Shown here: positions 319 through 5,927 of the stretch, piece by piece | Numbering within the stretch: the first letter of the stretch is position 1 | Layout: each line of letters starts with the position of its first letter | Source: a virus | Lineage: Duplodnaviria; Heunggongvirae; Uroviricota; Caudoviricetes | IMG/VR virus record: IMGVR_UViG_2576861193_000001 | Strand: one strand, 5' to 3' | DNA length: 19,451 nucleotides | Program-made: the position numbers and the translations under genes | Notes under the pieces: model-generated | Seen by the model: the letters and a program-made list of their open reading frames with translations, nothing else | Told to the model about the DNA's origin: nothing | The model's database searches: none

Positions 319-610
319 TGCCATCACAAAAGCCATTCCCTACAGAGTGGCTTTGATAATGGCTTATACCCTACACGGGATAACTTAACTGATATCCCTT
401 TTAAAGGATAAAGGTATTCAAGCCTGACACATCATGCGCTGTATCGTCGCCGTATTCCCGCATTAACCATGACCGTAGCCCGACGGGGAATTCCTTCTGC
501 GTGAGTGTGCGGGAATAATCAAAAACGATGCACACCGGGGTTACCGGGTACACATATTTCATCATGCCAGCGAGTCCGGTTCTGGCACGGAAGAAACCGG
601 ACGTTATGAT

Positions 611-1021
611 TTAGTGCGGAAATATTTGTGTAGTGTTCTGAATGTTCTCAGTAAAGAGTAATGAATTATCAAAGGTATAGTAATATCTTTTTTGTTCGTG
701 GATATTTGTAACCCACCGAAAAACTCCTGCTTTAGCAAGGTTTCTTCTGTATTCCTGAAATGTGATCTCTCTGGATTTCAGCTTATTAGAGGTCGTTTCT
801 ATAAGATGCCTATCCTTTGAAAATTTGACAGACACAATGTTTTTTAGGCCCTTTAATAACACTGTATTATCATTTTTTAATACAATATGAACATTCTCTG
901 TGGCTAAATAGTAAATGTAATGTGAGACATTGTGACGTTTTAGCTCAGAATAAAACCATTGATAGTTTAAATCGTTTCGAACTTTATCAAATATTTGTTT
1001 AAAAATGACTACCTGATCCAT
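611..1021 (-). CDS. Hypothetical cos-proximal moron protein, 136 aa from the second ATG (141 aa if started at 1036); possibly YbcV/DUF1398-like
   Basis: Open frame 611..1036 on the minus strand in a visibly AT-rich segment. The ATG at 1021 is preceded by GGAAGG at about 7 nt, whereas the ATG at 1036 has no SD. Family assignment is from recollection of cryptic-prophage gene context (borD-ybcV-ylcI-nohD in DLP12), not verified. Confidence 0.55.
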
Positions 1022-1078
1022 AGATAAACCTTCCATGTGATATGAGGGGGCGTAGTCTGCACGATTATCTAAATTGCT

Positions 1079-1312
1079 TCAATCTGGTCTGACCTGTTTT
1101 CTGAGCAATTCAGTAATGTCACTCTTTTCTTTGTTTGCTTCAGGAGAAACTCTTTTTTCTGAGCACAGTCTCCGGCGGCAGGCTTCAATGACCCAGGCTG
1201 AGAAATTCCCGGACCCTTTTTGCTCAAGAGCGATGTTAATTTGTTCAATCATTTGGTTAGGAAAGCGGATGTTGCGGGTTGTTGTTCTGCGGGTTCTGTT
1301 CTTCGTTGACAT
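1079..1312 (-). CDS. Small ribbon-helix-helix (Arc/MetJ-like) DNA-binding protein, likely YlcI/YnfO (DUF3950) family
   Basis: 77-aa ORF with basic N-terminus, a beta-strand-like RNIRFP, helix NQMIEQINIALEQ, glycine turn KGSGNFS and helix AWVIEACRRRL, which is the RHH pattern. It sits immediately upstream of cos and Nu1, as ylcI/ynfO do in E. coli cryptic prophages (recollection). Confidence 0.65.
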   Translation of the reverse strand: MSTKNRTRRTTTRNIRFPNQMIEQINIALEQKGSGNFSAWVIEACRRRLCSEKRVSPEANKEKSDITELLRKQVRPD

Positions 1313-1481
1313 GAGGTTGTCCCGTATTCAGTGTCGCTGATTTGTATTGTCTGAAGTTGTTTTTACGTTAAGTTGATGCAGATCAATTAATACGATACCT
1401 GCGTCATAATTGATTATTTGACGTGGTTTGATGGCCTCCACGCACGTTGTGATATGTAGATGATAATCATTATCACTTTAC

Positions 1482-1675
1482 GGGTCCTTTCCGGTGATCC
1501 GACAGGTTACGGGGCGGCGACCTCGCGGGTTTTCGCTATTTATGAAAATTTTCCGGTTTAAGGCGTTTCCGTTCTTCTTCGTCATAACTTAATGTTTTTA
1601 TTTAAAATACCCTCTGAAAAGAAAGGAAACGACAGGTGCTGAAAGCGAGCTTTTTGGCCTCTGTCGTTTCCTTTC
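1482..1675 (+). other. cos: cos site: cosQ (GGGTCCT 1482..1488), cosN (12-nt cohesive-end sequence GGGCGGCGACCT 1512..1523), cosB with three Nu1-binding R elements and an AT-rich IHF-site region
   Basis: The lambda right-end sequence ...CCGACAGGTTACG is directly followed by the left-end GGGCGGCGACCTCGCGGGTTTTCGC. Heptamer CGTTTCC occurs at 1564..1570 and 1665..1671, and its reverse complement GGAAACG at 1625..1631 (R3, R1, R2). An AT-rich stretch 1586..1612 lies between R3 and R2. Confidence 0.88.
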
Positions 1676-1700
1676 TCTGTTTTTGTCCGTGGAATGAACA

Positions 1701-2220
1701 ATGGAAGTCAACAAAAAGCAGCTGGCTGACATTTTCGGTGCGAGTATCCGTACCATTCAGAACTGGCAGGAACAGGGAATGCCCGTTCTGCGAGGCGGTG
1801 GCAAGGGTAATGAGGTGCTTTATGACTCTGCCGCCGTCATAAAATGGTATGCCGAAAGGGATGCTGAAATTGAGAACGAAAAGCTGCGCCGGGAGGTTGA
1901 AGAACTGCGGCAGGCCAGCGAGGCAGATCTCCAGCCAGGAACTATTGAGTACGAACGCCATCGACTTACGCGTGCGCAGGCCGACGCACAGGAACTGAAG
2001 AATGCCAGAGACTCCGCTGAAGTGGTGGAAACCGCATTCTGTACTTTCGTGTTGTCGCGGATCGCAGGTGAAATTGCCAGTATTCTCGACGGGCTCCCCC
2101 TGTCGGTGCAGCGGCGTTTTCCGGAACTGGAAAACCGACATGTTGATTTCCTGAAACGGGATATCATCAAAGCCATGAACAAAGCAGCCGCGCTGGATGA
2201 ACTGATACCGGGGTTGCTGA

Positions 2221-2246
<26 letters not shown>
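1701..2246 (+). CDS. nu1: Terminase small subunit Nu1
   Basis: 181-aa ORF beginning MEVNKKQLADIFGASIRTIQNWQEQGMPVLRGGGKGNEVLYDS, recognised as lambda gpNu1 (winged HTH). It lies immediately downstream of cosB. Confidence 0.97.

Positions 2247-5927
<3,681 letters not shown>

Follow-up and report, generated by a model that had tools for sequence, protein, structure and literature searches.

The closest described relatives of the locus studied here lie in prophages of E. coli K-12 and in phage lambda. The Qin prophage carries ynfO (b4533) and ydfO (b1549) beside nohA, and a related arrangement, with ylcI and ybcV (lambdap78 in lambda), is found in DLP12 and lambda. A solution NMR structure of YdfO has been deposited (PDB 2HH8), and K-12 ylcI is transcribed, ybcW-ylcI being listed as a convergent excludon for 50% or more of RNA-seq samples. 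Three host regulators have been placed at these loci. FNR binding was shown at the K-12 nohA/nohB loci by ChIP-chip and EMSA, with effects that were just marginal and with the fragment assayed in the noh direction only (PMC1802558). The Fur site of nohA (22.3 bits) was supported by Fur gel shift and in vivo selection, and that of nohB scored 25.3 bits (PMC2189734). PdhR binds both K-12 sites, and ybcV mRNA was 10-fold lower in a pdhR mutant (PMC7660256). No experiment assigning a function to YnfO or YdfO was found in the searched literature.

The 19,451-nucleotide stretch of Caudoviricetes DNA analysed here (IMG/VR record IMGVR_UViG_2576861193_000001, hereafter the window) carries the Qin arrangement on its minus strand. 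Window positions 573-2068 align with Qin nohA-ynfO-ydfO at 97.7% identity and without gaps; the gene order, the strand relation to nohA and the 57-nt spacer are all equal, YnfO is one residue apart and YdfO five, all in the C-terminal tail, and there is no difference in the FNR, Fur and PdhR sequences. The two loci differ downstream, since the window prophage keeps the full lambda-type head and tail genes, and gnsB follows ydfO in Qin whereas an IS1 end lies 560 bp past ydfO in the window. The locus is the already annotated ynfO-ydfO pair of the Qin prophage and lambda-like phages rather than a new kind of system, both genes being in the databases under family names. The initial annotation, which had likened the pair to the ylcI/ynfO plus ybcV neighbourhood of cryptic prophages, was correct in this respect. 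The same 1.3 kb is present in 4872 of 5426 complete E. coli genomes (~90%). The genes and their immediate landmarks are as follows:

1079-1312, minus strand: ynfO, read 1312 to 1079, 77 aa, TGA stop at 1081-1079; YlcI/YnfO protein, DUF3950
611-1021, minus strand: ydfO, 136-aa DUF1398 (YdfO/YbcV) protein, stop codon at 613-611
1036, minus strand: alternative ATG of ydfO, read 1036 to 611, 141 aa
1029-1034, minus strand: Shine-Dalgarno-like GGAAGG, 7 nt 5′ of ATG 1021, read directly from the sequence
1512-1523, plus strand: cosN, 12-nt lambda cohesive end GGGCGGCGACCT, exact match, in the neighbouring packaging module outside the cassette
1701-2246, plus strand: ORF for a Nu1/NohA-type small terminase subunit, divergent from ynfO, annotated as nohD or DNA-packaging protein in near-identical loci

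Both ORFs are far beyond chance because of their DUF1398, DUF3950 and 2HH8 match scores. YdfO spans the whole of Pfam PF07166 (DUF1398; model positions 1-119/119, E=1.7e-46, 157.6 bits, cut-off 22), and over residues 1-140 the 141-aa form is identical to PDB 2HH8 at 138 of 140 positions (E=1.6e-89), so that YdfO can be assigned the fold of that structure. YnfO matches Pfam PF13132 (DUF3950; E=2.8e-21, 75.6 bits against a cut-off of 25) and NCBIfam NF041551 (36.7 bits, cut-off 30). A match to well-characterised families of known role, which would have counted against the initial proposal, was not obtained; the families are named, but their functions are uncharacterised. Both ORFs, their strand and their spacing of 42 nt (141-aa start) or 57 nt (136-aa start) were found at the coordinates first proposed. 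The 136-aa start is the RefSeq one for K-12 ydfO, and only its ATG at 1021 has a Shine-Dalgarno-like motif, conserved in five of six aligned DUF1398 upstream regions (AAGAGG in the ycgX copy); ATG 1036 is preceded by CCCCCTCATATCAC, without such a motif. The ynfO frame and the 141-aa ydfO frame happen to be the same. The setting, described earlier as AT-rich and adjoining cos, is so: GC content is 32% at 601-1050 versus 52-57% across the terminase and head genes, and the cohesive end lies at 1512-1523. The bor-type position holds as well, the pair occupying the accessory slot between lysis genes and cos where lambda has bor. A 233-aa 'fusion' protein, P0121, with both domains was rejected; it has W at the position of the ynfO TGA and is a gene-caller artefact in which TGA was taken as Trp on short contigs.

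Codon comparisons show that both genes are under purifying selection. The pN/pS of ydfO is 0.1-0.4, and ynfO shows 12 synonymous and 12 non-synonymous changes against a divergent copy over codons 1-52 (pN/pS 0.29) and 15 synonymous and 7 non-synonymous changes against an Stx-phage copy over codons 1-49 (pN/pS 0.14). YnfO has a basic N-terminus, a near-invariant 49-residue core and a tail that is hypervariable in both sequence and length; its calculated pI is 10.6, and that of YdfO is 9.6. A DNA-level element was considered as the source of conservation in the 5′ half of ynfO and rejected on two grounds: this half falls in the cos-terminase block (window ~1150-4200) that is generally 97-100% identical to other lambda-cos phages, and homology to the Stx phages is confined to the CDS, with synonymous changes dominating.

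The AF2 monomer model of YnfO has helices at residues 19-32 and 34-54 (pLDDT 75-80), with residues 1-18 in coil and no strand predicted; the strand of real ribbon-helix-helix proteins forms only in the dimer. In hhalign comparisons with Arc and with the Arc/Mnt profile, YnfO aligned in the expected register (P=0.02 and P=0.0078) at a probability of just 2-5%, residues 11-34 lying on Arc 8-31, N14/R16 pairing with Arc N11/R13, and G33 with G30. Foldseek of the monomer model against the PDB gave no match at E<=0.001, a PDB profile search with YnfO gave none, and a permissive Pfam scan of YnfO returned no ribbon-helix-helix family at E<=10. The ribbon-helix-helix pattern, initially called clear, is plausible from the two helices and the Arc register but weak by score (hhalign P=0.008, probability 5%; Foldseek none). 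A tblastn match of YnfO in a Pasteurella phage was discarded because the annotated repressor gene there is on the other strand. We infer that YnfO may be a small Arc/Mnt-like ribbon-helix-helix DNA-binding protein in which the first ~49 residues alone would matter, and that the Qin-type tail may result from a reading frame that continues into the control region ahead of ydfO.

YdfO has an orphan two-repeat fold. Its model consists of two alpha-alpha-beta-beta-beta halves with weak internal similarity (P=0.0018), and a BFVD search with this model found nothing; an Rfam search gave nothing relevant. The invariant or near-invariant residues are L, T, G, Y, N, A, W and Y, with no acidic, basic, Cys or His residue among them. 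YdfO would probably be a basic, cytoplasmic, pseudo-dimeric protein acting through partner binding, not catalysis. The labels 'head protein' (PHROG 413, RefSeq) and 'putative envelope protein' found no support, because YdfO is soluble, its fold does not fit them, and it is also encoded on chromosomes at a distance from phage genes. A reported increase in oxidative-stress resistance on YdfO over-expression (PMC4077768) was also rejected, since that paper does not contain ydfO and reports YfdO of CPS-53.

Like several small proteins of the lysis-to-cos slot, YdfO might be a superinfection-exclusion, anti-defence or anti-repressor protein binding a phage or host protein. The gene sits in that slot beside bor and is present in some and absent in other, otherwise similar phages, its fold is non-enzymatic and pseudo-dimeric, and the neighbouring lysis region of Stx phage YYZ-2008 holds an anti-repressor Ant gene. 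Such a role is nevertheless improbable in our estimation: YdfO has no PADLOC match below E=0.01 and matches no known exclusion or anti-defence protein in structure, chromosomal homologues outside prophages occur in other Enterobacteriaceae, and no phenotype of YdfO, or of YnfO, is reported in the searched literature.

Whether the two genes belong together was judged from their distribution. Among 50,697 phage records, the DUF3950 N-domain occurs in 153 and DUF1398 in 43. In 80 loci seeded on the N-domain, ydfO is adjacent in 42, ybcW intervenes in 6, no DUF1398 gene lies within 3 kb in 31, and in one the sequence stops too close to ynfO for a decision. In Stx phages, the DUF3950 gene occurs without DUF1398. 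That of YYZ-2008 is solitary, next to a terminase of another type; the homology begins with its ATG, and a stem-loop with a T-run 3′ of it is interpreted as a terminator. In lambda and DLP12, a gene on the opposite strand separates the DUF3950 and DUF1398 genes. Distant chromosomal DUF1398 genes (Kluyvera, Klebsiella, Salmonella, Raoultella) and K-12 ycgX have neither a DUF3950 nor a Nu1 neighbour. Our best reading, which we hold to be probable, is that ynfO and ydfO are two separable accessory genes that happen to adjoin each other here and not one coupled cassette. Adjacency in 42/80 loci and a divergent pair (L109/L110) in which both genes are adjacent and co-oriented leave room for a functional link.

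The idea of a type II toxin-antitoxin module, with YnfO as ribbon-helix-helix antitoxin and autorepressor and YdfO as toxin, draws on a small basic DNA-binding-like gene 57 nt 5′ of a co-oriented 136-aa gene, on a weak PHROG match to a HicB-like antitoxin family (E=0.009), and on a call of ydfO as essential by TraDIS only. It appears very improbable. Linkage is not obligate in either direction, as seen in the 153 versus 43 records, the 31/80 loci without DUF1398 and the solo chromosomal DUF1398 genes, and the opposite-strand gene of lambda and DLP12 stands between the two. YdfO lacks a conserved catalytic-type residue, corresponds to no known toxin class by family or fold, and has no toxin or defence family match; it was produced alone for the NMR structure, and an ASKA clone over-expressing ybcV could be grown and its glycogen phenotype scored. 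As for TraDIS, transposons probably insert poorly into AT-rich DNA bound by H-NS, which would explain the call; this interpretation is ours and not that of the paper. The coupled regulator-effector or toxin-antitoxin cassette of the initial annotation is therefore not upheld, the genes being separable both ways and the DUF1398 gene having its own conserved element, and nothing ties YdfO as a toxin-like effector to toxin or defence families. A misleading annotation is thereby avoided, because the pair does not behave like a toxin-antitoxin module.

The element in question lies just 5′ of ydfO, together with a predicted promoter:

1078-1098, minus strand: conserved element 5′ of ydfO, consisting of the invariant 14-mer CAGACCAGATTGAA (1078-1091) and the overlapping PdhR gSELEX box AACAGGTCAGACCAGAT (1082-1098)
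1064-1069, minus strand: predicted ydfO-proximal -10 hexamer GATAAT from a consensus scan, 5/6 match with a weak -35, predicted start ~1057

The 14-mer and the PdhR box are exact matches in the window and overlap the final ynfO codons and stop codon. The 14-mer is found 57 nt 5′ of every E. coli-clade DUF1398 gene, invariant before Qin ydfO, DLP12 ybcV, lambda-type p78, the L109 copy and K-12 ycgX, with the DNA further upstream diverging; there is one copy per locus, solely where a DUF1398 gene follows. In lambda and DLP12, window ~1103-1150 is replaced by ~620 bp with the opposite-strand gene ybcW/p79, which makes co-transcription of the two genes impossible there. A promoter must exist ahead of the DUF1398 gene in both, because the upstream gene is on the other strand. 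Each of ynfO and ydfO appears to have its own control region. The ydfO promoter would be its own, weak and activator-dependent, marked by the CAGACCAGATTGAA/PdhR element. No terminator was found between ynfO and ydfO, so that ydfO may also receive read-through from ynfO in this arrangement; 3′ of ydfO, the hairpin at 578-600 makes a poor terminator candidate (z=-1.3, no T-run).

Instead of a host factor, YnfO itself could bind the 14-mer. YnfO/YlcI would then be a specific repressor or activator of DUF1398 genes in a dedicated regulator-effector pair, binding the invariant tandem CAGAC-CAGAT in cis here and in trans at the ybcV/ycgX copies at other sites of the genome. In favour of such a pair, the genes are neighbours on one strand in 42/80 loci and in L109/L110, no terminator was found between them, and the 14-mer is invariant and tied to DUF1398 genes only. 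It also holds two tandem CAGA boxes, and YnfO N14/R16 align with the Arc residues N11/R13 that read TAGA boxes in the Arc-operator structure. We consider both the dedicated pair and the proposed binding unlikely, since at least 110 phage records have the regulator without DUF1398 and lack the 14-mer at those loci, Kluyvera-type DUF1398 genes have neither the element nor the regulator, and the element already has a published binder, PdhR (PMC7660256).

The region 1313-1480, earlier suggested to hold a promoter, is a plausible location for one, with published FNR and Fur binding sites inside it:

1346-1351, minus strand: predicted ynfO -10 hexamer GACAAT from a consensus scan, predicted start ~1338-1339
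1368-1391, unstranded: FNR binding site, a 24-mer identical to the published nohA/nohB site, with the perfect core TTGAT-N4-ATCAA at 1373-1386
1382-1414, unstranded: inverted repeat ATCAATTAATACG-N7-CGTCATAATTGAT from a repeat search, a candidate operator with 13-nt arms, 85% complementary, adjoining the FNR box
1456-1474, unstranded: Fur box, 16/19 against GATAATGATAATCATTATC, equal to the Fur site published as 'nohA -233'

GACAAT and its flanks are conserved in the divergent L109 copy, in which the distal arm of the inverted repeat (1402-1414) is only partly conserved. The FNR core is the only perfect one in the window; the site is centred 67.5 bp 5′ of the ynfO ATG and about -40.5 to -41.5 from the predicted start, a predicted class II geometry. 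The Fur box search at 3 mismatches gave one match versus zero expected, and the sequence is identical in K-12 Qin and lambda. A promoter-consensus scan tool at its threshold reported none at the predicted ynfO or ydfO promoters. Leftward transcription of ynfO, antisense to the late operon, would come from a promoter with an FNR box at ~-41.5 and the Fur box ~120 bp further upstream, and because of this layout ynfO expression in a lysogen would respond to anaerobiosis and perhaps to iron. The proven FNR, Fur and PdhR binding sites fit ynfO/ydfO better than the terminase pseudogenes to which they were originally assigned. If this reassignment holds, reporter and deletion experiments could reveal responses of lambdoid prophages to oxygen, iron and pyruvate.

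The upstream sites also bear on a role of YnfO/YlcI in packaging, either as a cos-proximal DNA-binding accessory factor or as a regulator of terminase expression, with ydfO as unrelated cargo. The gene always abuts packaging genes: a Nu1/NohA-type gene lies beside ynfO in 77/80 of the N-domain-seeded loci, the Stx-phage DUF3950 gene adjoins HNH and HK97-type terminase genes, and the 5′ half of ynfO is within the conserved cos-terminase block. For lambda packaging, ~200 bp around cosQ-cosN-cosB is enough, and late transcription would oppose ynfO, which is on the strand opposite the late operon. Homology to the Stx phages begins exactly at the ATG, with unrelated DNA upstream, so that conservation attaches to the protein rather than to a site linked to cos, and host FNR and Fur sites upstream are typical of lysogen-expressed genes. 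The packaging role is accordingly given little credence.

H-NS may keep the AT-rich DNA of the locus silent during laboratory growth, with expression set off by stress. Consistent with this, ybcV and ybcW rose more than 1000-fold on expression of T4 MotB, which alters H-NS repression, and ydfO rose 12- to 116-fold with ionic liquid. Taken together, the locus is best read, with somewhat better than even confidence, as two separable, H-NS-silenced accessory genes, one for an Arc-like protein that binds DNA and one for a protein that binds a partner without enzymatic action. More speculatively, YnfO/YlcI might be an autonomous Arc-like regulator, unannotated in lambda, that is FNR-activated and possibly Fur-modulated and acts in trans on the CAGAC-CAGAT of DUF1398 genes or on host genes, which we regard as a long shot. 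If true, YnfO/YlcI would be switched on next to cos in anaerobic, iron-limited gut conditions, and the FNR/Fur sites credited to nohA/nohB would belong to a prophage-to-host signalling circuit in most E. coli. There is modest value in pointing to two proteins with no assigned function that occur in ~90% of complete E. coli genomes and in lambda, where one is unannotated: the lambda RefSeq record has no annotation for the ylcI ORF (48109-48303, complement).

Compared with lambda and DLP12, the window has a DUF1398 protein ~80% identical to that of lambdap78/ybcV, a DUF3950 protein identical to YlcI over residues 1-49, and the same DNA from ylcI to cos, FNR and Fur sites included; YlcI is 64 aa long with a tail unlike that of YnfO. 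Like lambda bor and other morons, the pair runs against late transcription in the interval from the lysis genes to cos, and ydfO is AT-rich (32% GC), present or absent among otherwise similar phages, being missing from many with the same flanking cos-terminase block; Bor differs in being annotated as an outer-membrane lipoprotein with a demonstrated serum-resistance phenotype. YnfO resembles P22 Arc/Mnt in being small, in having a basic N-terminal arm and in its two predicted helices, and its N-x-R-x-P ... G-x-x-x-x-S is in register with Arc N11-R13-P15 ... G30-S35. On the other hand, the similarity would not count as significant in a database search (probability 2-5%), the monomer model has no strand, and Arc regulates its neighbour ant, whereas the gene adjoining YnfO varies.

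Two reading frames lie on the minus strand beside the phage cohesive end, at the positions given by the initial annotation. The resemblance it named, to the ylcI/ynfO plus ybcV neighbourhood of E. coli prophages, is borne out by the family matches and by alignment to Qin. The features are as follows:

1312 to 1079, minus strand, ynfO reading frame, 77 aa
1036 to 611 (141 aa) or 1021 to 611 (136 aa), minus strand, ydfO reading frame with two start choices
1512 to 1523, lambda cohesive-end sequence

The intergenic gap is 42 or 57 nt by start choice, as initially proposed, and the cohesive end is followed by Nu1 and then terminase A on the plus strand. By Pfam and NCBIfam alike, the 77-aa protein clears the cut-off for YlcI/YnfO (DUF3950). 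The 136/141-aa product is a DUF1398 protein of full length (E=1.7e-46), and residues 1-140 of its longer form match PDB 2HH8 ('hypothetical protein ydfO') at 138/140 positions. Over window 573-2068 the alignment with nohA-ynfO-ydfO of the Qin prophage of K-12 is gapless at 97.7% identity, with one residue differing in YnfO and five in YdfO, all in its tail. The observation is real, and the locus is already catalogued as the ynfO-ydfO of Qin. A Shine-Dalgarno-like GGAAGG stands 7 nt 5' of the inner ydfO ATG and is absent at the outer one; the K-12 start in RefSeq is the inner ATG (136-aa form). GC content is 32% at 601-1050 versus 52-57% in the terminase genes.

The ynfO frame and the 141-aa ydfO frame share one reading frame, with one TGA and 14 sense codons between them (window 1037-1081). 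A database protein cluster spanning both domains (P0121, 233 aa, 761 members) was rejected as a true fusion, being a read-through with W at the ynfO TGA; it almost certainly arose as an artefact, with gene callers decoding TGA as Trp on short contigs.

Around the two genes, several other features were observed. The window begins inside an IS1 element, whose terminal 51 nt form positions 1-51; E. coli genomes contain this 51-mer at a median of 11 places each, and >5000 plasmids have it as well; in R100 it adjoins the IS1B transposase gene. Relatives without the insertion have an unannotated spacer, then a GIY-YIG nuclease and lysis genes. The 560 bp between the IS1 end and ydfO (52-610) are ~99% conserved in many E. 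coli genomes and contain no annotated gene; a 54-aa ORF there (401-565, minus strand) had no family match, and a conserved hairpin (578-600) lacks a terminator-like appearance. Between cosB and the Nu1 start, a long inverted repeat (1615-1681) gives a reverse-strand self-match in BLAST and weak, sub-threshold Rfam matches to microRNA models on both strands; it probably belongs to the lambda cosB/Nu1 leader already described.

Of 5426 complete E. coli genomes, 4872 contain a 1.3-kb stretch of this locus, as do 183 phage records, lambda among them. For ydfO, pN/pS is 0.1-0.4 against several copies. Differences in the conserved part of ynfO are too few for a selection test among lambda-cos phages; against the divergent copy at locus L109 the counts are 12 synonymous and 12 non-synonymous (pS 0.35, pN 0.10), and against Stx phage YYZ-2008 15 and 7, respectively (ratio 0.14). 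Both are real genes. Both lambda-region searches also returned phage record MW057783.1 (match H113; 'Campylobacter phage CJLB-4', 48,361 bp), whose YbcV gene scores identically to lambda's and which appears to be lambda DNA deposited with Campylobacter as its host.

The two genes are not a unit. The YnfO N-domain was found in 153 of 50,697 phage records and DUF1398 in 43. In a set of 80 IMG/VR loci for which this N-domain was the seed, 42 carry ydfO 56-57 nt downstream of ynfO, six have the lambda arrangement, and 31 lack DUF1398 within 3 kb, carrying instead bor, ybcW with gnsB/csp genes, or others; the sequence of the remaining one ends too soon past ynfO to be decided. Conversely, when one genome of each species was scanned, DUF1398 genes at 30-37% identity turned up solely in chromosomes of Enterobacteriaceae (Kluyvera, Pseudocitrobacter, Klebsiella, Salmonella diarizonae and Raoultella), none of them with a DUF3950 or Nu1 neighbour, and K-12 ycgX, which adjoins bluR, has no such partner either. 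In most of the Kluyvera loci examined (L084-L103, ~4530-4770) and in the unclassified Enterobacteriaceae locus L084, a conserved 74-aa opposite-strand ORF (MLEGYFDLDGATG...), with no Pfam match, precedes the DUF1398 gene.

The initial annotation had paired a ribbon-helix-helix pattern with an adjoining 136-aa protein as a candidate regulator-effector or toxin-antitoxin-like moron. YnfO is likely, though unproven, to be a ribbon-helix-helix protein: hhalign places its residues 11-34 on Arc 8-31 (P=0.02 against Arc and P=0.0078 against an Arc/Mnt profile, at a probability of only 2-5%), with N14-x-R16-x-P18 on Arc N11-R13-P15 and G33 on G30, the register expected by reading the sequence. The AF2 monomer model shows, at moderate confidence, helices spanning 19-32 and 34-54 after an N-terminus in coil; Foldseek, a profile search of the PDB and a Pfam scan at permissive settings gave no RHH match. 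Invariant or near-invariant positions in YdfO homologues as distant as 20% identity hold L, T, G, Y, N, A, W and Y, with no residue of catalytic type among them; the protein is basic (pI 9.6), and its labels 'head protein' and 'putative envelope protein' found no support. PADLOC returned nothing relevant on the locus. Separability in both directions, along with the fold and the conserved residues of YdfO, argues against a type II toxin-antitoxin system, which we consider very unlikely.

Among YnfO homologues, little or no variation is seen at 45 of the first 49 residues, and the tail is free in sequence and length (whole proteins 63-97 aa). From ~1150 through the terminase genes the window is 97-100% identical to other lambda-cos phages, whereas ydfO reaches only 70-90% and is internally mosaic, which puts a mosaic junction near codon 54 of ynfO. 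Lambda, HK629 and DLP12 carry ~620 bp with opposite-strand ybcW/p79 in place of window ~1103-1150, and their YlcI is left at 64 aa. The lambda ORF (NC_001416, 48109-48303 complement; L196 2210-2404) is identical to YnfO in its first 49 residues and equals DLP12 YlcI in length; lambda RefSeq leaves it unannotated, and its feature list is empty from 47944 to the right end.

The downstream gene has a conserved 5' element of its own: the invariant 14-mer CAGACCAGATTGAA (window 1078-1091, minus strand; also L198 3669-3682), which contains two tandem CAGA boxes and lies 57 nt 5' of the start in every E. coli-clade DUF1398 gene examined, among them Qin ydfO, DLP12 ybcV, lambda-type p78, L109 and chromosomal ycgX (46% protein identity). 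It occurs once per locus, solely where a DUF1398 gene comes next; sequences further 5' are unrelated, and it was not found at Kluyvera-type homologues. In the Qin arrangement the last ynfO codons overlap the element, which explains the retention of its bases in lambda despite the replaced ynfO tail and hints that YnfO has its long tail only incidentally. The element overlaps published PdhR gSELEX sites in the ynfO-ydfO and ybcV-ybcW spacers; pdhR deletion lowers ybcV and ybcW mRNA about 10-fold (PMC7660256).

In the divergent spacer upstream of ynfO (1313-1500), the 24-mer TTAAGTTGATGCAGATCAATTAAT, reported as an FNR site 'upstream of nohA/nohB' in K-12 by ChIP-chip and EMSA (PMC1802558), is unchanged at 1368-1391 and holds the window's only perfect TTGAT-N4-ATCAA core. 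A lacZ fusion oriented toward noh, the one direction covered, had low activity and marginal FNR dependence, and ynfO/ylcI was not among the genes named in that study (PMC1802558). The box centre is 67.5 bp 5' of the ynfO ATG; with a -10-like GACAAT at 1351-1346 and a predicted start near 1338, it would lie at about -41, a class II geometry. A Fur box at 1456-1474 (16/19 to consensus) is the 'nohA -233' site, gel-shifted with Fur and selected in vivo (PMC2189734). By geometry, both sites, attributed to nohA/nohB in 2006-2007, suit the predicted ynfO/ylcI promoter at least as well. The listing of ybcW-ylcI as a convergent excludon in K-12 (PMC12288877) implies that ylcI is transcribed there.

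Published data record ydfO up 12- to 116-fold under ionic liquid, ybcV and ybcW up >1000-fold on expression of T4 MotB (which alters H-NS repression), ybcV up in sabinene-adapted cells, and ydfO among four Qin genes changing on DicC induction. The call of ydfO as 'essential only by TraDIS' probably reflects poor transposon access to H-NS-bound AT-rich DNA. No paper in the literature searched assigns a function to YnfO or YdfO. The oxidative-stress resistance ascribed to YdfO over-expression (PMC4077768) is a citation error confusing ydfO with yfdO: the cited source (PMC3105296) reports YfdO of the CPS-53 prophage and never mentions ydfO. This mix-up could spread into annotations.

The best-supported reading is that ynfO and ydfO are two independent accessory genes, probably H-NS-silenced and wired to host regulators. 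YnfO would be an Arc-like DNA-binding protein that constantly accompanies the boundary of the packaging module; YdfO may be a binding protein of orphan fold, optional in the locus, whose gene has a conserved control element to itself. In YYZ-2008, the DUF3950 gene is solitary and adjoins an HNH endonuclease and an HK97-type terminase; its ATG coincides with the start of homology, and a stem-loop and T-run 3' of the gene read as a terminator. Lambda also carries both the FNR and Fur sites.
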